Shown: one piece after another, positions 24,335-38,143 of the stretch
Numbering within the stretch: the stretch's first letter is position 1
Layout of the letters: each line of letters starts with the position of its first letter
Assembly: GCA_963707955.1 (NCBI GenBank)
Contig: OY970176.1
Span: 1,568,001 to 1,632,000, forward strand
Length of the DNA: 64,000 bases
DNA from: Candidatus Bathyarchaeota archaeon
Lineage (GTDB): Archaea; Thermoproteota; Bathyarchaeia; Bathyarchaeales; Bathycorpusculaceae
Reading direction: 5' to 3'
Notes under the pieces: generated by a model
Database searches by the model: none
Told to the model about the DNA's origin: nothing
The model's input: the letters and a program-made list of their open reading frames with translations, nothing else
Translations under genes and position numbers: made by a program

Positions 24335-25153
24335 CTAGCCTTTTCTTTCCAAGTGGCTTATCAAGCTTTCAAACACCAGTTTTCCGTCTCCGTATTCGGA
24401 CCTCCGTTTCTGTCTCGTCCAGTCTGGCTGTTGCCACCAGTAGAAGGCTCTTTCCGGATGCGGCATCAAGCCGAACACGGTTCCCTCAGGGTTGCACACA
24501 CCCACTATGTCATGAAACGACCCGTTCGGGTTTGTCGGATAAGCACCCTCTGCGTACTCGCCGCTGCTGTTGCAGTAGCGGAAGACAAGCTGATCGTTCT
24601 CGTAAAGCCTCTCCAGGCACTGCTTCTCTTTTTCTTTTGCAAACATGAACCTGCCCTCACTGTGCGCGACTGGTACGCGAAGTACCTTTCCCCTAGGAAT
24701 TTTCGACGTGAATACGCACTTTCCTCTGCTTTCATGCTTAATGCTGACCCATCTGCAGTTGTACCCTGGCGGAAAATTAGTGGCCAACGCTGCCTCAGGA
24801 TAGAGACTGATTCCTTCAAAAGCCGGAAGCAACCCTGCCTCAACGAGCACCTGAAACCCATTGCAGATGCCGAGGATCGGACGGTTTTCGTCCACAAAAA
24901 CCCTCAACTCTCTGCCCAACTTGGACATTATCCACTTCGCCCATATGGCTCCAGCTCTAACGTAGTCTCCGTAAGCGAAACCGCCTGGAAAGACCAGCGC
25001 ATCATAGTCTAACATGCTTCGCCGCTTCACCATCTCGTTCGCATGCACAACTTCGGCTTGAACGCCCAGCGCTTCGAACGCCCGTCTCGTCTCAGCATCA
25101 CAGTTCGTTCCGCCTACGCGCGAGACGCAGACCCTGATCTCTTCTCGCTTCAC
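24335..25153 (-). CDS. purQ: FGAM synthase glutaminase subunit
   Basis: GTNCD, GICNGFQ, AHSEG, GLMPHPER. Confidence 0.97.
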   Translation of the reverse strand: MKREEIRVCVSRVGGTNCDAETRRAFEALGVQAEVVHANEMVKRRSMLDYDALVFPGGFAYGDYVRAGAIWAKWIMSKLGRELRVFVDENRPILGICNGFQVLVEAGLLPAFEGISLYPEAALATNFPPGYNCRWVSIKHESRGKCVFTSKIPRGKVLRVPVAHSEGRFMFAKEKEKQCLERLYENDQLVFRYCNSSGEYAEGAYPTNPNGSFHDIVGVCNPEGTVFGLMPHPERAFYWWQQPDWTRQKRRSEYGDGKLVFESLISHLERKG

Positions 25154-25156
25154 AGC

Positions 25157-27538
25157 CTAAACCCTCCTGCTAAGCGTTCGCTTCCAACTCGCTACAAGAT
25201 CAGTGAGCGAAACGTCAACGACAACCTTGCCCGCCAACCCTGTGACACATAATCTAGGAGACTTTGTAACCCTGCCAATCTCTGCAAAAACCCTGCCTCC
25301 CATTACGGCCTCAAAGCGTTCCTTCGCCTCTCCAGAAACTTCTACGAGGAAACGACTGTTCGACTCCGAGAACAGCAGAAAATCGTCACGGTTCAACTCC
25401 TGCGAAGGAACTTTCCTCAGATCCAGCACGATCCCGTACCCACCTGCAAAAGCCATCTCCGCTGCGCTGACAGCTAAACCTCCTTCAGAAACGTCGTGAC
25501 ATGCTCTGACCAGTCCAGAATCAATCGCCTTGGTCACTGCGCCAAAGGCCTTTTTAGCCTGGTTCCTCCGCACTTTAGGCACGGTTCTTCCGATAACTCC
25601 ATTCATTCTATAGTATTCCGAACCGCCGAGCTCTTTGAAGGTTCCTCCAACGATGTAGATCAAATCGTTCGGGGCCTTGATATCCACAGACACTGCGGAG
25701 CGCACATCAGGAACTATGCCTAGAGCTGTTATCAACAGCGTCGGAGTCACCGGGCCCAGAGGTGACTCATTGTAAAGGCTATCCTTCCCCGAAATGAACG
25801 GTGTACCGTAATCAGTCGCAAAGTCATAACATGCTTCGCACGCCCTAACCAAGCTCCCAAGCCTCTCTGGCCGTTCAGGATTGCCCCAAGTAAAGTTGTC
25901 AAGAAGCGCTATTCGTCTTCCGCCCACAGCCACGTTGTTTCGCACCGCCTCATCTATGACAGAAGCAGCCATCCAGTAAGTGTCTATTTTTCCGTAGTTC
26001 GGGTTCATGCCGCACGAGATTGCTACACCCTTCCAGCTATCATCCAAAGGTTTTAACACAGCTGCATCGTTGGGACCGCCGTTCTTGCCCTGCAACGGCT
26101 TCAACACCGTGTTCCCTTTCACTTCATGATCGTACGTTCGCACAACGCTCTCTTTGCTCGCAATGTTAGGCGAAGAAAGAAGCCGCAAGACCGTTTCTGC
26201 AAGGTCTTCTTGAGCGGAAATTTCAGGCTCTTCCAAGTCTGCTGCTTTATATTTTGCCGTTTTCGTCATTCTAGGCGGTTCAAACAGAAATAAGATGTCC
26301 ATTTCTGCAACTTTTAGGCCGTGAAAGCTCAGTCTTAGTGTTTTGTTTGAGGTCAACTTTCCAATAGCAGCGGCTTCAACGTCTTCACCTCTAAAGACAG
26401 CTAACAAACGTGCGAGGTTTTCAGGCGGCGCTGTCAGGAGCATTCTTTCTTGAGATTCTGAAACGTAAATTTCCCATGGGCATAGGTCCGCATATTTCAA
26501 GGGAACTCTTTCAAGCTTCACCGTAGCGCCACAGTCAAACTTTTTCGCGGTTTCGCCCACGGCAGAGGATAGACCACCACCGCCTAAGTCTGTGATTGCA
26601 GATGCCAACCCGAGGTCTCGGATTTTGATTATTGCCCTCTTGAGCTTTTCCTCCTCGATCGGGTTGGCTATCTGAACTGCAGGGCGAGAAACCTCCTCTG
26701 ATTTTTCCGTCAGTTCAGCAGAGGCGAAGGTCACGCCGTGTATGCCGTCCCGGCCAGTTTTCCCGCCCGCCAAAACGATGACCTCATTCGATTTCGCGTC
26801 TTTCCTAAACTTCTTGAGTGGAAGGAGCCCAACGCATCCGCAGTAGACCACGACATTCCCAACGTAGCTTTCATCGAAGTATATGGCCCCGTTTACCGTT
26901 GGAATTCCCATGTTATTACCGTAGCTTCCTATGCCAGCGACGACACCCATGTAAACGTATTTTGGATGCTTAACCCCAGCTGGAAGTTTCTCATAATCAA
27001 AATCCAACGGTCCAAATCCCAAGACATCAGTGCACGCGATCGGATCCGCCCAAACGCCTAAAATGTCCCGGATAACACCGCCTGTTCCAGTTGCTGCCCC
27101 TCCGAAAGGTTCTACTGCAGATGGGTGATTATGCGTTTCAACTTTGATTGCTACTCCGTAACCCTTGTCGAAATCGACTATACCAGCATTATCTTCAAAA
27201 ACAGAGAAGCACCAGGACGGGTTGATTTCCTCCACAACTTTCTCTATGTACTTTTTGAACAGGCTGTCGATTTCCTTCTCGCCGAATTTTATCTTGCCCT
27301 TGAAAGTTTTGTGGAAACAGTGCTCTGACCACGTCTGTCCTATTGTTTGAAGCTCCACATCAGTTGGATTCCGTCTTTTTTTTGCGAAATACTGTTTGGC
27401 AAGATTCATTTCTTCCAAGTTCAGGCCGATGCCGAGTTCACGGCTTATCTCAACAAGTTGCTCGTTTGTTGCATTGTGAAGATTAACTTCAAAGAAGGGA
27501 AAAGGGGTTTCTCTGCGGATGTAAAGACTTGTGGTCAT
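25157..27538 (-). CDS. purL: FGAM synthase subunit PurL
   Basis: WSEHC, KVETHNHPS, SESQER, DLGGGG. Confidence 0.97.
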   Translation of the reverse strand: MTTSLYIRRETPFPFFEVNLHNATNEQLVEISRELGIGLNLEEMNLAKQYFAKKRRNPTDVELQTIGQTWSEHCFHKTFKGKIKFGEKEIDSLFKKYIEKVVEEINPSWCFSVFEDNAGIVDFDKGYGVAIKVETHNHPSAVEPFGGAATGTGGVIRDILGVWADPIACTDVLGFGPLDFDYEKLPAGVKHPKYVYMGVVAGIGSYGNNMGIPTVNGAIYFDESYVGNVVVYCGCVGLLPLKKFRKDAKSNEVIVLAGGKTGRDGIHGVTFASAELTEKSEEVSRPAVQIANPIEEEKLKRAIIKIRDLGLASAITDLGGGGLSSAVGETAKKFDCGATVKLERVPLKYADLCPWEIYVSESQERMLLTAPPENLARLLAVFRGEDVEAAAIGKLTSNKTLRLSFHGLKVAEMDILFLFEPPRMTKTAKYKAADLEEPEISAQEDLAETVLRLLSSPNIASKESVVRTYDHEVKGNTVLKPLQGKNGGPNDAAVLKPLDDSWKGVAISCGMNPNYGKIDTYWMAASVIDEAVRNNVAVGGRRIALLDNFTWGNPERPERLGSLVRACEACYDFATDYGTPFISGKDSLYNESPLGPVTPTLLITALGIVPDVRSAVSVDIKAPNDLIYIVGGTFKELGGSEYYRMNGVIGRTVPKVRRNQAKKAFGAVTKAIDSGLVRACHDVSEGGLAVSAAEMAFAGGYGIVLDLRKVPSQELNRDDFLLFSESNSRFLVEVSGEAKERFEAVMGGRVFAEIGRVTKSPRLCVTGLAGKVVVDVSLTDLVASWKRTLSRRV

Positions 27539-27786
27539 CGCTTTTCCTCAATGTTGACCGAGTAATTGTCCTTTGTTGGATTTGCCAGGAGCCTCTTGCA
27601 CATCTCTTCAGCTTCAGTTTTAGCCTCCTTCTTTGACCGAGCTTCAAGAGTGACGGTGTAGACTTTGCTGACATTAGCAGTTTCAATTTCATAGCCAAGC
27701 TCTTTTAATAATTGTGCGGTCGTCTCGCCTTCAGGGTCGCTGTGCCCGGGCTTCAAGCTTACCTCGATTCTCAGGCGATATTTCAT
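27535..27786 (-). CDS. purS: FGAM synthase subunit PurS
   Basis: LKPGHSDPEG, MCKRLLANP. Confidence 0.95.
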   Translation of the reverse strand: MKYRLRIEVSLKPGHSDPEGETTAQLLKELGYEIETANVSKVYTVTLEARSKKEAKTEAEEMCKRLLANPTKDNYSVNIEEKR

Positions 27787-27843: not shown

Positions 27844-28926
27844 CTAATCCAAAATGATTTTCTTACCCTTGGCGAAGACTCTGATTCCTCTGGAGTTCGT
27901 TACGTGGCCTATCTGTTCCGATTCTACTCCCAACTTGTTCAAAATGTCTAAGGCTTTGTTAGTGTCAGCTTTTTCCAAGATCGCCGCAAATCCCCATCCC
28001 ATGTTGAATGTTTTGAACATCTCCTTGTCCGTTATCGGGCTTTTCAGTTCGCTTGCAGTTTTTTGGACCAAGTCGAAGATTGGCTGCTGTTTGAAGTTGT
28101 TAAATTCAAAGCCTATAGCTTTGGAAGACTTTGCCAAGCGGTCAAACTTGAGGTAAGCGTCGCCGGTAATGTGCACGGCAGCCTTCACCTCCAGCTTCTC
28201 TGTCAGTCTGAGAAAAGGTTTCACATAAATTCTGGTCGGCTCCAAGACTTCACGGACCAGCTCACGTTCTAACCCGTCAGGAACAGCGTCCGCCCCATAC
28301 TTCCCACCCCACTGTTTGAAAAGCACTCTTCTGGCGAGAGAAATGCCGTTACTGTGGAGCCCCGAGCTCTTCAAACCTATTATTGGGTCCCCAGGGTTTA
28401 TGTTCCTTCCTGAAATCACGTCTTCTTTAGCGACTTCACCTATTGCCGCGAAGATCATGTCGAACCCCTTGCCTGCGTGCAGACCGTTTATCAGATCGGC
28501 TACATCGCCAATTTCGCCGCTGGGAACGATGCATTCTGACTCGGCTGCCGCTCTTGAAATGCCTCTCATCCATTCTCTTACAAGCGAGGGGTCGGAAACC
28601 TGTGCGTGAATGTTGTCCGCAATTGCGATTGGTCTGGCGCCGGAGCGTATGACGTCATTGACTGCCATTGCTACGCCGTCAATTCCGATGGTATCATATT
28701 CCCCTCCTAGCTGGGCAATGAGCACTTTTGTGCCAACTCCTTCAATAGCTAGGTCTAGATAACGGTCGTGAAATGGAAATATGTTCCCGTAGGGAAGCTC
28801 GACAACTTTACCGTACCGACTGTGTCTGTAGGTCCGTTTCAATATCTGTAACGCCTTTTTTGACTCAGCTCTCAGGTCTCTGTCGACTCCAGTGTCAGAG
28901 TATGTGAGTTTTCGGGTCACCGCCAA
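27844..28926 (-). CDS. purM: AIR synthetase
   Basis: EGVGTK, AMAVND, SSGLHSNG, HITG, TFNMG. Confidence 0.95.
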   Translation of the reverse strand: MAVTRKLTYSDTGVDRDLRAESKKALQILKRTYRHSRYGKVVELPYGNIFPFHDRYLDLAIEGVGTKVLIAQLGGEYDTIGIDGVAMAVNDVIRSGARPIAIADNIHAQVSDPSLVREWMRGISRAAAESECIVPSGEIGDVADLINGLHAGKGFDMIFAAIGEVAKEDVISGRNINPGDPIIGLKSSGLHSNGISLARRVLFKQWGGKYGADAVPDGLERELVREVLEPTRIYVKPFLRLTEKLEVKAAVHITGDAYLKFDRLAKSSKAIGFEFNNFKQQPIFDLVQKTASELKSPITDKEMFKTFNMGWGFAAILEKADTNKALDILNKLGVESEQIGHVTNSRGIRVFAKGKKIILD

Positions 28927-29101: not shown

Positions 29102-29503
29102 TTATCTCTGCCTCAGTAGCGGTTCATACACGATATTCGGTCGTCTAGTTCCATTCTCAGCAGCCAGAAGCATGCTTAGCAAGACGTAATACTGTCTTAG
29201 GAAGTCGAGTCCTCTTTCACTTGCCCTGTACACCACTCTGCCATCTTTTACACCTTCCTGAATGAAGCCCATCTCGATGAGAGAATTGAGAAATTTGTTG
29301 AGTTGGCCGGAGTTGATGCTTGCATGCTTCATTATGGAGAATCTGGCCTGTCTTCCATCCTTGACAGCTTCAACCATCAAAGCTATGATTTCGAAGTGGC
29401 TTCTGTACTTCTTGCCCAGAGGGAAGCCGCAAAGACGGTATCTATTCTGCAAGGGTAAATAGGACAAATCATGGTCAATGGCATAATTCTCCATATGCAC
29501 CAC
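29102..29503 (-). CDS. Winged-helix DNA-binding protein
   Basis: YRSHFEIIALMVE..IMKHASINS..LNSLIEMGFI..YRASERG. Confidence 0.8.
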   Translation of the reverse strand: MVHMENYAIDHDLSYLPLQNRYRLCGFPLGKKYRSHFEIIALMVEAVKDGRQARFSIMKHASINSGQLNKFLNSLIEMGFIQEGVKDGRVVYRASERGLDFLRQYYVLLSMLLAAENGTRRPNIVYEPLLRQR

Positions 29504-30320: not shown

Positions 30321-31880
30321 TTGAAGAAAGGCATTTTGATTCTGCTGATTGGGTTACTTTTGCTGCTCACGTTTTCCTTTGTGAGATTTAGAGTATATGT
30401 GTATGCAAGCCCGGGCGTTATCTATGTTCCAGCCAACGGAACGATCCAAGCAACCATAAACAATGCAAGTTCAGGCGACACGATAATCGTTCCAAGCGGC
30501 ACCTACCGTGAAAGTCTCAGCATCAACAAGAGTCTATCCATTGTCGGAGAAAACAGAACGACCACGATTATCGATGGCGATGGTGCCGACAACGTGATAT
30601 CAATAAGCAGCGACAACGTGACCATTGAAAGTCTGACCATCACTAAGACCACCTCAGGGCTTTCTGGCGGCGGGATACTTGTGTCACGAAGCACCGGGGT
30701 CGTCATAAATGACACCCAGATCACGAACACTAGCACTGGGCTTACTCTTGACTTGACCACCAACTGCGCTTTTTCGGACGACGTTATTGCCAATAACACC
30801 AACGCAGTTTTGATCTATGGTTCAAGCAGCAATGTTTTTTCAAGCAACGCTGTTTTAGACAACTCTCTCGGCGTCGTCTTTAGTGGCTACCTTAACAACA
30901 ACCTGTTTTCTGGTAACACGTTTTCAGATAATATTGTTGACGTTTTTCTTTCCTCAGACAGCAACGGGAACGTCTTTTACCACAACAACTTTTTGGACGA
31001 AAATCCCATTCAAGTAAATGCGCCGTCAACAAACGTCTGGAGTCGTGAGGGTGAGGGAAATTACTGGGCTAACTACAATTTTTCTGGACCCAGCACAGGC
31101 GGGATTGGAGATGAACCCTACTACATAGATAAGAACAACCAGGACAACTACCCCTTGATGGGAGTCTTTTCCAGCTACGACATAACATACAACAACGAGG
31201 AGTTTCAGGTAACCATTATCAGCAATTCCACGGTTACTGATTTCACGTTTGAGGTTAGCAGAGAAACGGGCTACAATATAGTCAGCTTCAGTGCTCTTGG
31301 GGAAGACGATACATTCGGTTTCTGTAGGATGACGATTCCGAAGTCGTTGATGTACTACCCGTTAATCATTGTGGATAGTGAAGGAGAGGTCGCAACGTCT
31401 TTATTGAGCGCCTCAGATAACGCAACTACTTATTTGTATTTCACCTATCCCCATGGGGACCAGAGCATCACTGTAATCTCTTCAGAAGCATTACAATTGC
31501 AGAGCGAGCTGAATGACGAGTATGCAGAGCTTCAAGCAGACTTTGACAGCTTGAACGCAACGTACCAGGCTGAGATCGCCAACGTGAACTCCACGTATGA
31601 GGCTCTGCTAAACAGCTTTGGCCTGTTGCTGCAAAACTTCAGCCAACTGCAGAGTAACTATTTGGCGTTGAACTCGTCTTTACAGAACAACTTGGCGAAT
31701 CAGTCTCAAAGCATGCAAAACATTCATAATCTCACGTACATCTTTGCGGCAACAACAGCAGCCTTCTTAATAACCACGGTATACCTGTCAACGCGCGCTA
31801 ATGGAAACAGAAAGCCGAAGGCCCGTGCCTTTGAAGAAGAAGGGCAAGCGAGAAGAACTGCCTTCGTTGAAGAACATTGA
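30321..31880 (+). CDS. NosD/CASH beta-helix surface glycoprotein
   Basis: TIQATINNA..GDTIIV..GTYRE, N-rich repeats, GNYW, DNYPLM; coiled coil and C-terminal TM. Confidence 0.85.
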   Translation: MKKGILILLIGLLLLLTFSFVRFRVYVYASPGVIYVPANGTIQATINNASSGDTIIVPSGTYRESLSINKSLSIVGENRTTTIIDGDGADNVISISSDNVTIESLTITKTTSGLSGGGILVSRSTGVVINDTQITNTSTGLTLDLTTNCAFSDDVIANNTNAVLIYGSSSNVFSSNAVLDNSLGVVFSGYLNNNLFSGNTFSDNIVDVFLSSDSNGNVFYHNNFLDENPIQVNAPSTNVWSREGEGNYWANYNFSGPSTGGIGDEPYYIDKNNQDNYPLMGVFSSYDITYNNEEFQVTIISNSTVTDFTFEVSRETGYNIVSFSALGEDDTFGFCRMTIPKSLMYYPLIIVDSEGEVATSLLSASDNATTYLYFTYPHGDQSITVISSEALQLQSELNDEYAELQADFDSLNATYQAEIANVNSTYEALLNSFGLLLQNFSQLQSNYLALNSSLQNNLANQSQSMQNIHNLTYIFAATTAAFLITTVYLSTRANGNRKPKARAFEEEGQARRTAFVEEH

Positions 31881-32266: not shown

Positions 32267-33188
32267 TCAACACATACCAAGTTTCTTCAAGTCGCTGAGT
32301 GTTGGCAGGCCACTTCTCGCGCCCATGGCAGTGATGGACCTTGAGGCGACGAAATTGCCTATTTTTCCCGCTTCATTGATGTTCTTGCCGGAGAGTAGCC
32401 CGAATATGAAGCCAGCGTCGAAAGCGTCGCCAGCTCCGGTGGTGTCCACAACCTTGACTTTGAAGGGTTCCACCAAGTGGCTTTCATCTCTGTCTATGAC
32501 GTAGCATCCTTTGCTTCCCAGCTTTACAGCTAAGACTTCAACACCTTCATCAATTAGCAATCGTGCGCCTGCTTTATAGTCAGTCTTGCCTGTTAGCAAT
32601 GCAATTTCACCTGCGTTTGGCATCATTACAGAGGTCTTGTCTATAATGGGCTCTAGTTTCGTTAATCCGATTCCTGCGTACAGTGCTCCAGGGTCGAAGC
32701 TCACTCTGACCTCTTTTGGCAGCTGGCCAACAATTTTCTTCTGCGTTTCGAATGACTGTTTTCCAACAAAGGATGATAAATGCAAGAACCTAGTGCTTGA
32801 CGCATATTCACTGTCTATTTGGTCAAGTCTTATTGTGTCGTTCACGCCTGGGTCGATGTACAATGCGCGTTCTCCCCCTTTGCCCACGAAACCCATCACT
32901 TTGCCGCTTCTTCCCGTCGTCGCAACCGTTACGCCTCTTGTGTCAACGCCTTCTTTTCGAAAATCTTGAAGCAGCATTCTTCCTTCAGCGTCGCTGGCAA
33001 CCTTACCGATGAAACCCACCTTGCAGCCAAGTCTCGCCAAGGCCACCATGGTGTTTGCCGCTGAAACCGCCGCAAGCCTCTGAGTGATCGACTACAAAAC
33101 TTTCTTCCTCGGCAACGGCTATTCTGTTCACCTTAAACAGCTTGTCAACGTTGAGGGCGCCGAATCCTACGGCATCGAGTTTGCTCAT
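32267..33188 (-). pseudogene. PfkB/ribokinase-family kinase (EhaT-like), +1 frameshift at 33064-33066
   Basis: Removing one T restores GGSAANT; DTTGAGDAF motif; may be a sequencing error. Confidence 0.85.
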
Positions 33189-34099
33189 CGAAACAGCTCT
33201 TTCAAATTTATCTTGTAGTCGCCCAACTTTCCACCGTAGTTTCCTGCAGAAATCCTCACCACGCCATCAACGCTCAACGCCGCTTCTATGCCGGCCTTCA
33301 TTGCTTTTCTAACCGCGTCCATGGAGATGCCGTTGATCACTATTTCTGGGATATAGTTGACGCCTTCTGGCACTTTGGACTCGCCTTTTAGCTTCCTTTT
33401 CAGGGAGGGGCAGTACGGATGGTTTGTGGTGGGTCCTATCAGCGGGAAACGTGTTTCAGTCTTCGACCCGGCTGAGCAGACGTCGAATGGTGTTGTTACG
33501 CCCTCAACCTGATGTATGGCTTCCAGTGCTTTCTTTCCGGCGTCGACTACTTGTTTTTTCGTTTTGCCCATGTACCAGAAGTTGCCGCCAGCGATTCCTC
33601 TCGCGTAGCCGATGTAGCGCTCTATGAGAAAGTCAGGCACCATGATTGGAACGACGATCACTTTTTTTCCGTATAGTTGCTCTTCCCACTCATACCCGTC
33701 TCCGCAGTGTCCAACCCTTTCCATCATGTCCATTTTCCCCTCAGGCTTCACGGACAAAGCGTCGAACACCGCTGTGAATGGTTTTACCAAGATATCTTGA
33801 CGAATTCGGTAGGAAAGCTCCTTTTCAAAACGGTCAAGCATGTTTTCTAAAGGTTTCCCTCTGTCTAGGCCCTTCCAGAACTGCAAGATTGCTCCTTTTC
33901 GGTCGTCGGGCGTTTCATTCTTCCCGAGCAGTCTTTCGACTCCGCTGTCAAGTCTGCCTATAACACCCGACGGCGTTGCGGTCGCATCGTCAGCAGCCTT
34001 CTTAACTGTCTCCTCGTCATCGGCGGTCACTATCACGCGACAGTATAATCCTGAAAAGGCTTCGGCATATGTGTCTTCAATCAAGTTTTTCTTGATCAA
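33185..34099 (-). CDS. Formylmethanofuran:H4MPT formyltransferase paralogue (Ftr-II/EhaS-like)
   Basis: [41 protein letters not shown]; divergent [12 protein letters not shown] segment. Confidence 0.88.
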
Positions 34100-34101
34100 A
34101 C

Positions 34102-35184
34102 CTATCCTAACCTGCTGATAGCTTCTCCTCTGACCTTCTTTCTAAACGCACTACTCTTCTTCGCTATGTCTCTCATGTTTTCTCTCGTTATTATTCTGGC
34201 TTTGGGCAGTTCTCGAGGATGCAGTTTGAGAAAACGTTCTCGCAAGTCCTTGTTCACTGAACTATTCTCTAGTGTTCTGCGATTCCATTTCGCCACTAGG
34301 TTTAGTGTTTTCGTTTTTCCGAACCTGATGAAAATGTCGGCGATCAGCGCTGTGGTCAAACTGTCCGCGGAGAGCAGTGCGATTTCAGCGTTTCTGACAG
34401 CGTATTGGTTCCCGTTGAATGAAATAGTCAGACCGCCGTTTTCCTTCACAAGCTTGAAGGCTTTCTCGTCAGTTATGCTGTCACCGACATACATCGTGTT
34501 CCTTAAATCCACGCGTTCCTTGCGTGTGATGTCCTTTATTGCTTCAGCTTTTTCTCTGCCGCCAACAGGTTTGACTTCAGAATAGATTTTTCCGATTGGC
34601 ATTTTGGCAATGGTTTTCCAGAAAATCTGGTCCAGCCTTCGAATTGTTGTCTGTGTCTCTTCTGGAAGGTCTTTTAGGCTCTTCGTTTCTGCTGGATTCT
34701 CGAACACGGGTAACTGCGCGATTTCACGGCCAGCCTTTTTTAAGCAGTCTTTCTCCTCTGAGGTTATGGTGTATGCGTCCAAGCTGAGTTTAGTGCAGTA
34801 GGTTTTCTCAAACGAAAACTCGAGAGCCTTGCATAAGGCCCTGATGTAATGTTCGTAGCTTGTGCTGATGATGTATGCCGGCGAAATGCTTCTCACGTGT
34901 CGAAGCAAGTTCCCTGCGTGTGCGATCAGGACGAGGTTTCTGGCAGAAAACTGCCTGATCTCCTCGTCTGTGACATCGTAAGCCTTGAGGAAGGGTAGCA
35001 CAAGCTTCAACGTGTCGCCTGCCTGGTAACCAGGTCTTCTCAACACGTCTGAAAGGGCATCATCATACCTGCTTACAACGGTGAAGAGTCTGTCGCCATG
35101 TGGGACAAAATGTGACAGCGTTTCGAGAGCGTTGTCGTTCTTCGAAATGGGTCCTTCACAGTCTGTGATGAAAAGCCTCTTCAC
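34102..35184 (-). CDS. HAD-superfamily protein (EhaR-like)
   Basis: [32 protein letters not shown]. Confidence 0.8.
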
Positions 35185-36608
35185 GACTTTCGCCTCAACT
35201 TCTCCATGTGTCTTACGCTCTTCTCTATGTGGTCTTCTGAGGCTATGTCGGTTCGATTCCAGAGGGCTCCACCCCGTATTGCCTTCAAGCCTTCAAGGGA
35301 GATCTGCCGAGCTTTTTCTATGCTTTCGCTGATCCCCACGGCGCACACAGCTCTGGATTTGAGGGCGAAGATCCTGCCGTCGCGTTTTTCCATTGATGCA
35401 GGGTAGATTCGAATATCGCCACCGTATTTCTTGCTCAGTTCATAAGCTCTGGTCAAGTCGACTGGTCTGTCAATGCTGTCTGCCTTGATAAGGCTTGGGA
35501 AGGTTTCTGCGTATCCGCCGTAGGAAGGTGGAGCCTTGTAGGTTACTACGGTCGCGGCTTTTTCTAATTGGAGCCTTGTCAAGTTTCCTTCCAACATTTT
35601 GAAGCAGACATCAATGAAATCATCCTTCAAAACGGGCATTATGTTGATTATCTCGGGGTCTCCTGGTCGACTGTTGTTCTCAAGAATCTTCAGTTTTCTG
35701 CGTGTGTGCATGAACGCAACGTAGAAAGGAACGCCTCGAAGGGCTGAGCTGTCTTCTTCTTTCCATTCTTGAAAGATCGTGTTGACGACGTTCAGCTCCT
35801 TGGCGCGATCAGCATCGGTCAGAAACGGCAACACGTCTCCGACGCCCTTGTACGAACCCATTCCTCCTGTGTTCGTTCCCTTATCGTCGTCGAACGCCCG
35901 TTTGTAGTCTCTTGTATCCGGCAGGGGTATGAGGTGTTTTCCGTCGCAGAACGCCTGAAAGCTTGATTCCTCTCCTTCGATTTTTTCTTCTATTATCACT
36001 GAACCGTGCTGGTAGTTTGAGAGGAAGTGCTCGAACAGCTGTTCTCGGTTCGTAAAGTCGTCACCCCAGACACCGACGCCCTTTCCAGCCGCTGGCTTGT
36101 CCGGCTTAACTACAGCTTGGTCAGCCAGTTTGTCGAGCCAATCGTAAACGTCCTTCTTGACTTCTGCAAGGGTTTTGTACTCTTTTGGGTTGAATATCTT
36201 GAAGCGCGGGTTGACTTCGGGGGCGACTCTTTTGAAAAAGAGCCGTTGTTGAACCTTGCTTCCCTCGATAGCGCATCGCTTTGTTGGACAGATCAGGGGT
36301 ATTCCTGTTCGTTTCTCTATGAGATCCCGTATTCCCTCGATTATCGGTTTTTCAGGGCCCACGATGCCGAAGTCAATTCTATGTTTATTCATCTCTGCGA
36401 ATTTGCAGATTTCCTCAACATTGAGGTCAGGTATTACAACGTGTTTTGTTGCCCTTTTCGCGTTGAAGGGGTTGCGTTGCTTATCGGCAACGTAGATCTC
36501 CACCTTGTAGTTTCGGCTGCGGGCGAAAGCGTCAACCATGGCTGCTTCTCTTGACCCATAAGAAACAACGAGTACGCCTACTTTTTCCATGAGTAACCCT
36601 TCTGCCAT
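35181..36608 (-). CDS. purD: Phosphoribosylamine-glycine ligase
   Basis: GPEKP, AAGKGV, GEESS, DYKRAFDDDKGTNTGGMGS, RPGDPE. Confidence 0.93.
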   Translation of the reverse strand: MAEGLLMEKVGVLVVSYGSREAAMVDAFARSRNYKVEIYVADKQRNPFNAKRATKHVVIPDLNVEEICKFAEMNKHRIDFGIVGPEKPIIEGIRDLIEKRTGIPLICPTKRCAIEGSKVQQRLFFKRVAPEVNPRFKIFNPKEYKTLAEVKKDVYDWLDKLADQAVVKPDKPAAGKGVGVWGDDFTNREQLFEHFLSNYQHGSVIIEEKIEGEESSFQAFCDGKHLIPLPDTRDYKRAFDDDKGTNTGGMGSYKGVGDVLPFLTDADRAKELNVVNTIFQEWKEEDSSALRGVPFYVAFMHTRRKLKILENNSRPGDPEIINIMPVLKDDFIDVCFKMLEGNLTRLQLEKAATVVTYKAPPSYGGYAETFPSLIKADSIDRPVDLTRAYELSKKYGGDIRIYPASMEKRDGRIFALKSRAVCAVGISESIEKARQISLEGLKAIRGGALWNRTDIASEDHIEKSVRHMEKLRRKS

Positions 36609-36637
36609 CGGATTGACCGTGAAGACCAGTTCTTGTG

Positions 36638-38143
36638 CTAGGCTCTTGGAACGGCTTCTTCCATTTCGTACAGTCTTTCTCTCTCTTCAAAACCCTGCAA
36701 GAACCGTTTCTTCATCTCATCGGCTATTGCTTGGGCCAGCGGTGTTGGATATTTGCCTGTTATGCACCCCGTGCACAACTCGTCTTGCTTAAACCCCGTT
36801 GCTTGTACCAAGCCTTCGAGTGACTGGTAGCACACTCCGTCTGCCCCTATGATCTTTGCGATTTCTTCTGTGCTGTGTTTTGAGCCTATGAGTTGGCCAT
36901 ATGTTGCCATGTCTATTCCGTACAGACATGGTCCGACTATCCGTGGAAAAGTAACGAAAACATATACTTTCTCGGCGCCCATCCTGCGCAATTTGTCAAC
37001 TATGACCCTTGTCGTGTCCCCTCTGACGATGCTGTCTTCGGTCACTATGATGCGTTTTCCTTCGATTCTGGGACCGAGGATGTTGATTTTCCTCTCTATC
37101 GTTGGGCTTCGGTCCTTGCTAAGTAGGATGAATGCCCTCTCGGTTACGTAGCGGTGTCTTCGTGAAGCCCTTTCCCATCTCAACCCAGAAGCTTCGTGAA
37201 CGCCGAGGGCCGAGTCGTCGCCTGTTTCAGGCACGGAAAGAATTATATCCGCGTCCTTGACAACCTTCGGATTCTCTCTCACGAGGTTTCTTCCAAATTC
37301 TTCACGAATCTCATAGACGTACTTGCTGTCAAACCGTGAGTCTGGCCTTGCAAAGTATGCGAATTCAAAGGCGCAGAAAGCCTTTCCTTTCCCGTTTACG
37401 AGCTTCTGCCTTTCAAACCCTTTGTTTGAAACCGTGACGAGCTCTCCCGGCTGCAGCTCGAAATCTCTTACGAAACCGTTTATGTCTAAACTGGCGGTTT
37501 CAGAAGAGAATGCATACGTTGAGTGGTCTTCGCTGTGGCCTGCGCACAACGGCCTTATTCCATGCGGGTCCTTAAAGGCGAAGAGATTGCCGTTTTGGTC
37601 TATGCACGCCACAGAAAAGGCTCCGTCGATTTCTTCCATACATGTCCCAACGGCGGATGTTAGATCCTTTCCTTTCAAGAGTTCGATCAGCAGTTTGTAG
37701 CAGATCAAATCTGCGTCGCATTCAGATGTAAACTGTGGAAACTCCTTGCATATCTCTTTTCGAAGCTCGAACGTGTTGACCACGTTGCCGTTGTATGAGA
37801 CGGCGAGCCCATGACCTTGTTTTGAAGCTGTCACTGGTTGCGTTCCTTCCACGAGCGATTTCTCGTCGCATTTTCCGGACGTTGTGTACCTCACGTTTCC
37901 AATGCCGACATTTCCAGGCAACCGGCCAAACCATTCTTGAATTGCGCTCGTTCTAATCTTCGGCACGAGGTCGAGGCTTCTGTGAACGTGGAACTTTCCA
38001 TCAAAATACGTGAGGAAACCATGAGACTGATGTCCCCTGTGGTTTTCAGCCCGTAAACCCCAATAAATGTATTGAAACACTGGCCGTTTATCGTAGTTTA
38101 CAGCTGCATATACTCCACATGCGATCTTCGGCTGGTCTCCCAT
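36638..38143 (-). CDS. purF: Amidophosphoribosyltransferase
   Basis: CGV N-terminus, HRG, VRYTTSG, YFARPDS, DSIVRG, Cys cluster. Confidence 0.95.
   Translation of the reverse strand: MGDQPKIACGVYAAVNYDKRPVFQYIYWGLRAENHRGHQSHGFLTYFDGKFHVHRSLDLVPKIRTSAIQEWFGRLPGNVGIGNVRYTTSGKCDEKSLVEGTQPVTASKQGHGLAVSYNGNVVNTFELRKEICKEFPQFTSECDADLICYKLLIELLKGKDLTSAVGTCMEEIDGAFSVACIDQNGNLFAFKDPHGIRPLCAGHSEDHSTYAFSSETASLDINGFVRDFELQPGELVTVSNKGFERQKLVNGKGKAFCAFEFAYFARPDSRFDSKYVYEIREEFGRNLVRENPKVVKDADIILSVPETGDDSALGVHEASGLRWERASRRHRYVTERAFILLSKDRSPTIERKINILGPRIEGKRIIVTEDSIVRGDTTRVIVDKLRRMGAEKVYVFVTFPRIVGPCLYGIDMATYGQLIGSKHSTEEIAKIIGADGVCYQSLEGLVQATGFKQDELCTGCITGKYPTPLAQAIADEMKKRFLQGFEERERLYEMEEAVPRA

Follow-up and report, generated by a model that had tools for sequence, protein, structure and literature searches.

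Organization of the locus

The DNA analyzed here (the window) is a 64,000-nucleotide stretch from Candidatus Bathyarchaeota archaeon (assembly GCA_963707955.1, contig OY970176.1, forward-strand positions 1,568,001 to 1,632,000). We focused on five of its genes, at 32267-38143, in which the purine biosynthesis genes purF and purD are joined to genes for a haloacid dehalogenase (HAD)-superfamily protein, a paralogue of the formyltransferase Ftr that we call Ftr2, and a PfkB-family kinase. The last three (the trio) are candidates for the third step of purine biosynthesis, the formylation of glycinamide ribonucleotide (GAR) to formylglycinamide ribonucleotide (FGAR).

Gene families of the window proteins were assigned with Pfam and NCBIfam profiles. 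The first gene, purF (36638..38143, minus strand), encodes the amidophosphoribosyltransferase of step 1 (501 aa; TIGR01134, 314 bits; GATase_7, 63 bits), whose sequence has Cys-Gly after a short N-terminal leader. It is followed by purD (35181..36608, minus strand), encoding a 475-aa GAR synthetase (step 2) with GARS_N, GARS_A and GARS_C domains and of a divergent type, which scored 251 bits against TIGR00877, under the 288-bit cut-off. Next are the gene for the HAD-superfamily phosphatase-like protein (34102..35184, minus strand; 360 aa, GTG start; PF12710, 31 bits), assigned to an AF1437/EhaR-like family, and the gene for Ftr2 (33185..34099, minus strand; 304 aa; FTR and FTR_C domains), a candidate formyltransferase for GAR or the GAR riboside. 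The last gene (32267..33188, minus strand) encodes a PfkB/ribokinase-family kinase of ~306 aa when one extra base is left out (PfkB, 163 bits). The gap between purF and purD is 29 nt, the purD stop and HAD start overlap as GTGA, HAD and Ftr2 are 2 nt apart, and the Ftr2 stop shares an ATGA with the PfkB start codon (ATG at 33188). These five genes are one tightly packed minus-strand unit. Their order and junctions had been described in a first-pass annotation made from the sequence, with which our recomputed coordinates agree, and Pfam matches confirmed its placement of further purine genes 3-8 kb downstream on the same strand. These are purM (step 5; 27844..28926; AIRS/AIRS_C) and the step 4 genes purS (27535..27786; PurS match), purL (25157..27538; FGAR-AT_linker and AIRS) and purQ (24335..25153; GATase_5), all on the minus strand; PurSLQ and PurM would consume the product of the HAD-Ftr2-PfkB module.

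The first-pass annotation had described an ATGA overlap between Ftr2 and the kinase gene. The overlap held, but the frame in the window is broken after 41 codons by one spurious base at ~33066 (33060-33070). This base was missing from the contigs of all four public runs that aligned there, one of which may be the source sample; none of the listed runs containing this DNA is recorded as RNA. A PfkB gene lies directly downstream of Ftr2, intact, in 42 of 42 close loci with enough flanking sequence, in most of them with an ATGA overlap. Because the base is absent from all four runs and PfkB is intact in all 42 relatives, we attribute the broken frame to an assembly error rather than to a pseudogene. 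Both the GGSAANT motif (GG lid) and the VVDTTGAGDAF motif (DTTGAGD catalytic motif) are present in the kinase. Every equivalog model scored far under its cut-off, including the ribokinase model TIGR02152 at 146 bits against the window protein, and the closest PDB matches of Bathyarchaeia PfkB were ribokinases or YdjH, at about 90-96 bits.

The host genome lacks PurN and PurT

The host genome is a single contig of 2,346,764 bases, 97.2% complete, and its nearest proteins carry Bathyarchaeia names. The first-pass annotation had found no PurN or PurT gene within the window, and this absence extends to the entire genome: there were no matches to the PurN family PF00551 (Formyl_trans_N) and none to the PurT model TIGR01142 at E <= 0.001. 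PurH likewise had no match in the host genome, which carries a single-copy PurP-family gene (G000:C1:2048232-2048996; 97.6 and 50.2 bits). The host therefore has genes for steps 1, 2, 4, 5 and 9, leaving step 3 as a gap with neither known kind of enzyme.

Genes for Mch and FwdA were also found in the host genome, with no match there to the MfnB family PF04476 although FwdA is present. There are two Ftr homologues. The second (C1:1016455-1017459) falls with canonical Ftr and shares 38% identity with the window Ftr2, so the separate canonical ftr that the first-pass annotation had suggested looking for does exist, elsewhere on the contig.

Ftr2 is a clade separate from canonical Ftr

In a tree of 101 sequences, canonical Ftr formed a 50-row clade with an SH-like approximate likelihood ratio (SH-aLRT) support of 100. 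This clade includes Methanosarcinaceae, Planctomycetota FhcD-like proteins and the Bathyarchaeia Ftr1, and the window protein was placed outside it, contrary to clustering with canonical Ftr, which had been named as evidence against a new function. Its companions in the tree come from Bathyarchaeia, Borrarchaeota, Promethearchaeota, Hydrothermarchaeota, Archaeoglobaceae, Methanophagales (ANME-1, a group of anaerobic methanotrophic archaea) and Alkanophaga, and named cultured carriers include Archaeoglobus fulgidus, A. veneficus, A. profundus, Ferroglobus placidus and Geoglobus ahangari. With a profile built from 11 members of the clade, further members reached at least 358 bits and all other sequences no more than 296; the same gap appeared genome-wide, at 342 versus 275 bits in Bathyarchaeia and 378 versus 286 bits in Halobacteriota. 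Ftr2 is a clade separate from canonical Ftr.

Both lobes of the fold are present at full length in the window protein (PF01913, 149 bits, residues 5-152; PF02741, 197 bits, residues 155-302). It scored 351.6 bits against NF002554, above the cut-off of 297, and 251 bits against the canonical equivalog TIGR03119, under the cut-off of 292.6. Ftr2 resembles canonical Ftr of solved structure (PDB 1FTR/2FHJ, 1M5H and 1M5S) in its Pfam lobes, in full-length matches with E values of 3e-58 to 2e-50, and in the catalytic glutamate: E252 was found in 77 of 77 Ftr2 sequences and 41 of 50 canonical ones, and aligns with the glutamate of the EIVING motif of the solved enzymes. It differs from canonical Ftr in its separate clade, its linkage to pur genes, a distribution complementary to that of PurN and PurT, and 13 positions whose residue is conserved to 90% or more in Ftr2 but seldom seen in canonical Ftr, e.g. 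R100, C132 and I221-G222-P223.

Another member of the Ftr family, the bacterial FhcD (PDB 6S6Y; E 1e-28 to the window protein), is similar to Ftr2 in that it works in the direction from N5-formyl-tetrahydromethanopterin (N5-formyl-H4MPT) to a primary amine. According to the accessible part of PMC6926001, FhcD moves the formyl group from formyl-H4MPT to aminomethylfuran at +4.4 kJ/mol, and Glu252 is its catalytic glutamate, which stabilizes the oxyanion. Unlike Ftr2, FhcD lies on the canonical side of the family, and the methylofuran that accepts its formyl group is attached to a large complex.

Two side observations concern the wider family. Seven long Ftr homologues were checked for fusions and were all canonical-type by profile score; in two of these proteins (P0159 and P0168), a canonical-type Ftr is fused to Fwd-like parts, namely Amidohydro_3 (as in FwdA) and GXGXG (as in FwdC). 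Furthermore, an Ftr2-like sub-branch in Promethearchaeota (loci L067, L069, L070 and L071), 47-49% identical to the window protein, always has next to it, in divergent orientation, a gene of ~303-307 aa that belongs to no clear family, judging by a Pfam scan of the L067 copy. This sub-branch may do something else; the one genome checked (G123) has a normal PurN.

Ftr2 is distributed in complement to PurN and PurT

The first-pass annotation had named an anti-correlation of the trio with purN and purT as support for its proposal, and this pattern was seen for Ftr2 in two separate scans, of 121 Bathyarchaeia genomes (completeness at least 80%) and 151 Halobacteriota genomes (completeness at least 85%). 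Among the Bathyarchaeia, in which PurT-like matches were counted at E <= 1e-30, Ftr2 was found in 47 genomes, PF00551 in 44, a PurT-like protein in 12 and purD in 101. None of the 47 Ftr2-bearing genomes had a PF00551 match, and a single one (G001) had a PurT-like match, whose 175 bits fall within the PurK-like score range of the Halobacteriota scan. Of the 101 purD-bearing genomes, 43 had Ftr2 only, 53 had PurN or PurT-like proteins only, one had both and four had none; 15 of the 19 genomes lacking Ftr2, PF00551 and PurT-like matches also lacked purD. In the Halobacteriota, Ftr2 occurred without PurN or PurT in 60 genomes, PurN or PurT without Ftr2 in 82, both in four and none in five. Thus, 60 of the 64 Ftr2-bearing genomes lacked both PurN and PurT, and 82 of the 87 Ftr2-less genomes had one of them. 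Canonical Ftr is present in both kinds of genome, and the Ftr2 pattern therefore does not simply follow the H4MPT pathway.

The formyltransferase is exchanged in place within the purine operon

In Bathyarchaeia, the gene right after purD was a PurN gene (e.g. in G088, G059, G076 and G047), a PurT gene (G103, G016, G068 and G006) or the HAD-Ftr2-PfkB trio. To count the neighbors of Ftr2-type loci, we split the loci at 58% identity to the window protein and used as denominators the loci with enough flanking sequence. Among the 45 loci with at least 58% identity, the gene immediately upstream of Ftr2 was HAD in 38 of 41, and the one immediately downstream was PfkB in all 42 noted above; purD lay on the upstream side in 37 of 40 loci, as did purF in 32 of 39. 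The linkage to pur genes seen in the window is thus conserved in Bathyarchaeia, and it recurs in a Borrarchaeum genome, in which an Ftr2 of 42% identity lies in the order purF-purD-HAD-Ftr2-PfkB-purL-purQ-purM.

Results from four other Bathyarchaeia genomes showed that the formyltransferase is exchangeable within the operon while HAD and PfkB stay. In G028, which has no Ftr2, the operon reads purF-purD-PurN-like-HAD-PfkB-FolD, with a PurN-like protein of 330 aa carrying a divergent Formyl_trans_N domain; in family f8 (three genomes) a PurN-like gene directly follows purD, with HAD and PfkB also present, and G034 reads purD-PurN-like-HAD-PfkB. The PurN-like proteins of G028 (L104, 3841-4833), G010 (L103, 4799-5635), G002 and G034 are ~280-330 aa long and score only 42-66 bits against PF00551; they may represent another kind of GAR formyltransferase outside the canonical ones. 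All four genomes have PurH and none has PurP, which, together with the PurN-like protein, indicates that both purine formylations have moved to folate in these genomes while HAD and PfkB were kept.

PurN, which uses folate, and PurT, which uses formate and ATP, share with Ftr2 the slot after purD, the mutual exclusion across genomes and, as proposed here, the reaction. Ftr2 differs from them in lacking any sequence relationship, in its proposed use of H4MPT-bound formyl groups and in its accompanying phosphatase and kinase. Pfam and NCBIfam listed only Ftr families for Ftr2 and no PurN or PurT homology; the proposal is that it would work like a GAR formyltransferase, not that it belongs to either family.

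HAD and PfkB accompany the non-canonical formyltransferases

The HAD family was found in 52 of the 121 Bathyarchaeia genomes: every one of the 47 that carry Ftr2, the four that have the PurN-like protein, and G058, in which HAD directly follows purD and Ftr2 was not found. PfkB orthologues, defined by a score of at least 287 bits (with a gap down to 241), were present in all four PurN-like genomes and in 43 of the 47 that carry Ftr2. The four exceptions are G001, with a weaker but adjacent PfkB, G048, with a partial and adjacent one, and G070 and G106, in which Ftr2 stood at a contig start. No canonical PurN or PurT genome of the 121-genome scan had an orthologue of HAD or PfkB. In the Halobacteriota, HAD was strong in 59, weak in four and missing from one of the 64 Ftr2-bearing genomes, and it was located within 6 kb of Ftr2 in nine (G265, G135, G184, G192, G176, G153, G197, G220 and G233). 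The order in G153 and G197 is HAD-PfkB-Ftr2, unlike that in Bathyarchaeia. Because HAD and PfkB are retained when the one-carbon (C1) carrier changes, they most likely act on the acceptor and not on the donor.

The motifs D8-x-E10-G-P, S107-T108-S109, K212 and G-D235-S-I-T-D239 were invariant in an alignment of 11 HAD sequences, so that the protein has the full set of motifs (I-IV) of phosphoryl-transferring HAD enzymes, including the Asp nucleophile. Motif I is D-x-E rather than D-x-D, which leads us to suggest that the glutamate serves as acid/base. The HAD family profile matched PDB 1Y8A at 178 bits over positions 6-312. This is AF1437 of Archaeoglobus fulgidus, a HAD-fold protein from structural genomics that was deposited as 'hypothetical protein', belongs to the same family as the window HAD and comes from a species that carries Ftr2. 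A complex prediction for two Ftr2 chains and one HAD chain gave no answer, with a score of 0.01, and speaks neither for nor against a complex. For the kinase, a comparison is offered by PDB 1TYY/1TZ3 ('putative sugar kinase'), which we take to be the Salmonella aminoimidazole riboside kinase, an enzyme that phosphorylates a purine-intermediate riboside. It differs from the window PfkB in being a salvage enzyme, with a match of 71.6 bits to Bathyarchaeia PfkB.

A short frame upstream of Ftr2 in genome G211 (L101, 4117-4374) was first read as a docking peptide. This was rejected, since the frame lacks a start codon and a complete HAD is encoded elsewhere in the genome. It matches the last ~45 residues of HAD, with 57% identity to the window protein, as do similar frames in G172, G152, G218 and G130. 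The frame looks like a relic of a lost HAD gene, and the operon that carries it like an acquisition from Bathyarchaeia, the adjacent Ftr2 being 70% identical to that of the window. At two Halobacteriota loci (L059 and L092), HAD and Ftr2 flank a sugar-phosphate cluster with genes for a TPR protein, a type V fructose-1,6-bisphosphatase (FBPase), an ATP-dependent phosphofructokinase (PFK) and a class II aldolase-like protein; at L094, L095, L096 and L102, only the TPR and FBPase genes lie between HAD and Ftr2.

Proposed reaction and formyl donor

Altogether, our results suggest that the HAD-Ftr2-PfkB trio is probably a three-gene replacement of PurN and PurT, converting GAR to FGAR in H4MPT-using archaea. 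The first-pass annotation had proposed the Ftr paralogue as a GAR transformylase, and comparative genomics supports this through the separate clade, the complementarity and the linkage, as far as sequences can speak to a reaction. We consider it likely that Ftr2 formylates the glycinamide amine of GAR or of its riboside. In this reaction, Mch would make N5-formyl-H4MPT from methenyl-H4MPT, and Ftr2, with its Ftr fold and catalytic glutamate, would work in the same direction as FhcD and pass the formyl group of N5-formyl-H4MPT on to a primary amine. The acceptor would be the glycinamide amine made by PurD, instead of methanofuran (MFR). HAD and PfkB would be obligatory partners on the acceptor side, and the PurL reaction that follows, which is driven by ATP, could draw the formyl transfer forward.

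If this is the reaction, formyl-H4MPT would be a somewhat better candidate for the donor than formyl-MFR. Ftr2 is the only Ftr homologue in three Halobacteriota genomes (G136, G158 and G197), all of which have Mch; FwdA was not found above the cut-off in these three, nor was any MfnB match. Genomes with Ftr2 only would have no formyl-MFR, and in them the formyl group would then have to come from N5-formyl-H4MPT. In G136 the gene order is Mch-purM-(HIT on the other strand)-Ftr2. The presence of Mch is not in itself discriminating, because 149 of the 151 Halobacteriota have it.

As to the role of HAD and PfkB, we tentatively propose, with the balance of probability somewhat against it, that they remove and then restore the 5'-phosphate. 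The gene order purD-HAD-Ftr2-PfkB fits such a relay: PurD would make GAR, HAD would strip its 5'-phosphate, Ftr2 would formylate the neutral riboside, and PfkB would use ATP to produce FGAR for PurSLQ. The cost would be one ATP, equal to that of PurT. Step 3 might then leave the nucleotide level altogether, a tentative reading in which a phosphatase of the EhaR/AF1437 family and a ribokinase-like kinase would frame an exchangeable formyltransferase, either Ftr2 with N5-formyl-H4MPT or the PurN-like protein with formyl-folate. EhaR/S/T of methanogens would also be explained in this way.

Several observations weigh against the proposed replacement or against the relay. Removing and restoring a phosphate costs ATP, and we know of no precedent for it inside de novo purine synthesis. 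The linkage fades with distance: among the 23 Ftr2-type loci with less than 58% identity, an adjacent purD was seen at 2 of 15 and an adjacent HAD at 2 of 19 with enough flanking sequence, and the neighbors included unrelated CYTH, TPR, HD and M42 peptidase genes and an FBPase-PFK cluster. A PurN of good score is present together with Ftr2 in four of the 64 Ftr2-bearing Halobacteriota (G132, G143, G154 and G197), and Ftr2 and PurN also occur together in the Promethearchaeia genome G123; these five genomes indicate that Ftr2 is not always the sole option. Eight Halobacteriota genomes have HAD without Ftr2, four of them with PurN and four with none of the enzymes. The strength of the complementarity is overstated by Fisher tests, which ignore the kinship of genomes. 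Families f11 and f21 are mixed and thereby point to repeated switching, of which only a few clear cases are seen, and all PurT-like calls in Bathyarchaeia were under the curated cut-off. Finally, the accessible part of PMC3261824 cites the view that formyl-H4MPT is a non-functional formyl donor for purines.

Alternative explanations

The strongest alternative keeps Ftr2 as the formyltransferase but has it act on GAR itself, at the nucleotide level, with HAD and PfkB off the path, in salvage or proofreading of dephosphorylated intermediates or in supplying ribose 5-phosphate for phosphoribosyl pyrophosphate (PRPP). We regard this possibility as about as likely as the phosphate relay. Its chemistry is the simplest, PurN and PurT likewise acting on the nucleotide, and it agrees with the resemblance of PfkB to ribokinases (the TIGR02152 and PDB scores given above) and with the many distant Ftr2 genes that have no adjacent HAD or PfkB. 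However, it leaves unexplained why, in Bathyarchaeia, HAD and PfkB are restricted to genomes with a non-canonical formyltransferase and why they persisted after Ftr2 was exchanged for the PurN-like protein. The genome-wide presence of HAD in 59 of the 64 Ftr2-bearing Halobacteriota, with four weak matches more, also weighs against this alternative.

It is improbable that Ftr2 is instead a second, anabolic formyl-MFR:H4MPT isoenzyme, with step 3 carried out by another enzyme such as a formate-dependent ATP-grasp protein (a PurP paralogue). Such an enzyme would find some favor in the accessible part of PMC3261824, which suggests the use of formate by an unknown enzyme. The catalytic glutamate and much of the Ftr core are kept in Ftr2, and many Ftr2-bearing genomes have two tandem PurP-family genes. 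The host genome has only one, however, and tandem pairs also occur in the PurT-bearing G016, G068 and G103, so the pairs do not track the gap. Moreover, Ftr2-only genomes without FwdA would have no formyl-MFR to use, and neither the complementarity with PurN and PurT nor the in-place exchange for the PurN-like protein is explained.

A role for the trio in step 9, the formylation of 5-aminoimidazole-4-carboxamide ribonucleotide (AICAR) to its formyl derivative (FAICAR), or in both formylations, appears very unlikely. Step 9 is likewise a formylation of an amine on a ribotide, and the host genome has no PurH. The characterized member of the PurP family is a formate-dependent FAICAR synthetase, and PurP-family genes are present in the host genome and in 46 of the 47 Ftr2-bearing Bathyarchaeia. 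The four genomes with PurN-like protein, HAD and PfkB have PurH, and the module is located after purD, away from the late pur genes.

Formylation before ligation is slightly less plausible still. Here, Ftr2 would make N-formylglycine, which a divergent PurD would join to phosphoribosylamine to give FGAR. In its favor, PurD is low-scoring in every Ftr2-bearing genome, at ~220-270 bits as against 300-500 in most PurN or PurT genomes; against it, family f15 combines this low-scoring PurD with PurN-type genes and no HAD, and HAD and PfkB would have no role.

Lastly, it is scarcely credible that the trio consists of accessory subunits of an energy-converting hydrogenase, as EhaR/S/T are treated in Methanothermobacter. 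In favor of this reading, ehaS and ehaT are co-transcribed with ehaA-R and a metabolic role is called unlikely in the accessible part of PMC3087415. Against it, a Pfam scan of 19 window proteins between 22.9 and 46 kb showed no hydrogenase among them, in keeping with the first-pass annotation, and 37 of 40 close loci have the trio coupled to purF-purD.

Relation to known systems and published work

A likeness of the trio to the end of the methanogen eha operon had been pointed out in the first-pass annotation. This was borne out for EhaS, annotated as Ftr, and EhaT, annotated as ribokinase, in the accessible part of PMC3087415; for EhaR, an Atlas cluster of that name, which lies near the HAD protein with a score of 0.97, is a lead. 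Unlike EhaR/S/T, the trio here has no hydrogenase genes nearby and does not stand at the end of an eha operon, and the two are likened by annotation only.

The gap at step 3 has been recognized in print. The accessible part of PMC3261824 (2011) lists seven purine-making archaea without purN and purT, comprising a pair of Archaeoglobi, four 'Methanomicrobiales' plus Methanopyrus kandleri; the 'Methanomicrobiales' as used there include Methanosphaera stadtmanae and two Methanobrevibacter, and Methanothermobacter is discussed alongside. As far as the available text of PMC9012536 (2022) goes, Ftr2 is reported in ANME-1, ANME-2a/b, Archaeoglobales, M. kandleri and M. marburgensis, while a separate section describes ANME-1, Archaeoglobales and Methanobacteriales as lacking both PurN and PurT, with the enzyme unidentified; within that text, the two observations are not connected. 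A literature search that left most subscription journals outside its coverage found no published link between Ftr2 or EhaS and GAR formylation, and, as far as searched, HAD-Ftr2-PfkB as a step 3 module is not yet in print.

For Archaeoglobales, Methanobacteriales, Methanopyrus and ANME-1, the enzyme of GAR formylation has thus been reported as missing (PMC3261824, restated in PMC9012536, both in the parts accessible). If the proposed replacement is correct, a core nucleotide step would gain a third independent solution, and the H4MPT C1 pool would be wired directly into purines. It would allow metabolic models to be closed for methanogens, methanotrophic archaea, Bathyarchaeia and some Asgard archaea, and would give a function to three genes long classed as hydrogenase subunits. 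If the relay is also correct, it would be a third, non-homologous solution to GAR formylation and the first known relay of its kind in the de novo pathway, and EhaR/S/T of methanogens would be a tap that draws Eha-replenished C1 units into purines. The claim can be tested at the bench, as cultured Archaeoglobus species carry Ftr2 and the HAD partner family has a crystal structure (1Y8A).

Other features of the locus and of the purine genes

The PurD proteins of Bathyarchaeia fall into two score classes, of ~220-280 bits (below the TIGR00877 cut-off) and of 300-505 bits. The low class comprises all Ftr2 genomes, families f8 and f15 and some of f18, and the high class most PurN and PurT genomes; the two may represent an archaeal and an acquired type. 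PurP-family proteins occurred in several forms, as tandem pairs of ~365 aa, as proteins of ~460 aa and as proteins of ~490 aa with an insert, the last being the form of the only copy in the host genome. Tandem pairs were found both with and without PurT.

Between the trio and purM, the window contains a gene for a 519-aa NosD/beta-helix protein (30321-31880, plus strand) and a small winged-helix gene (29102-29503, minus strand). A locus 97% identical to that of the window was found in a metagenome-assembled genome from peat.

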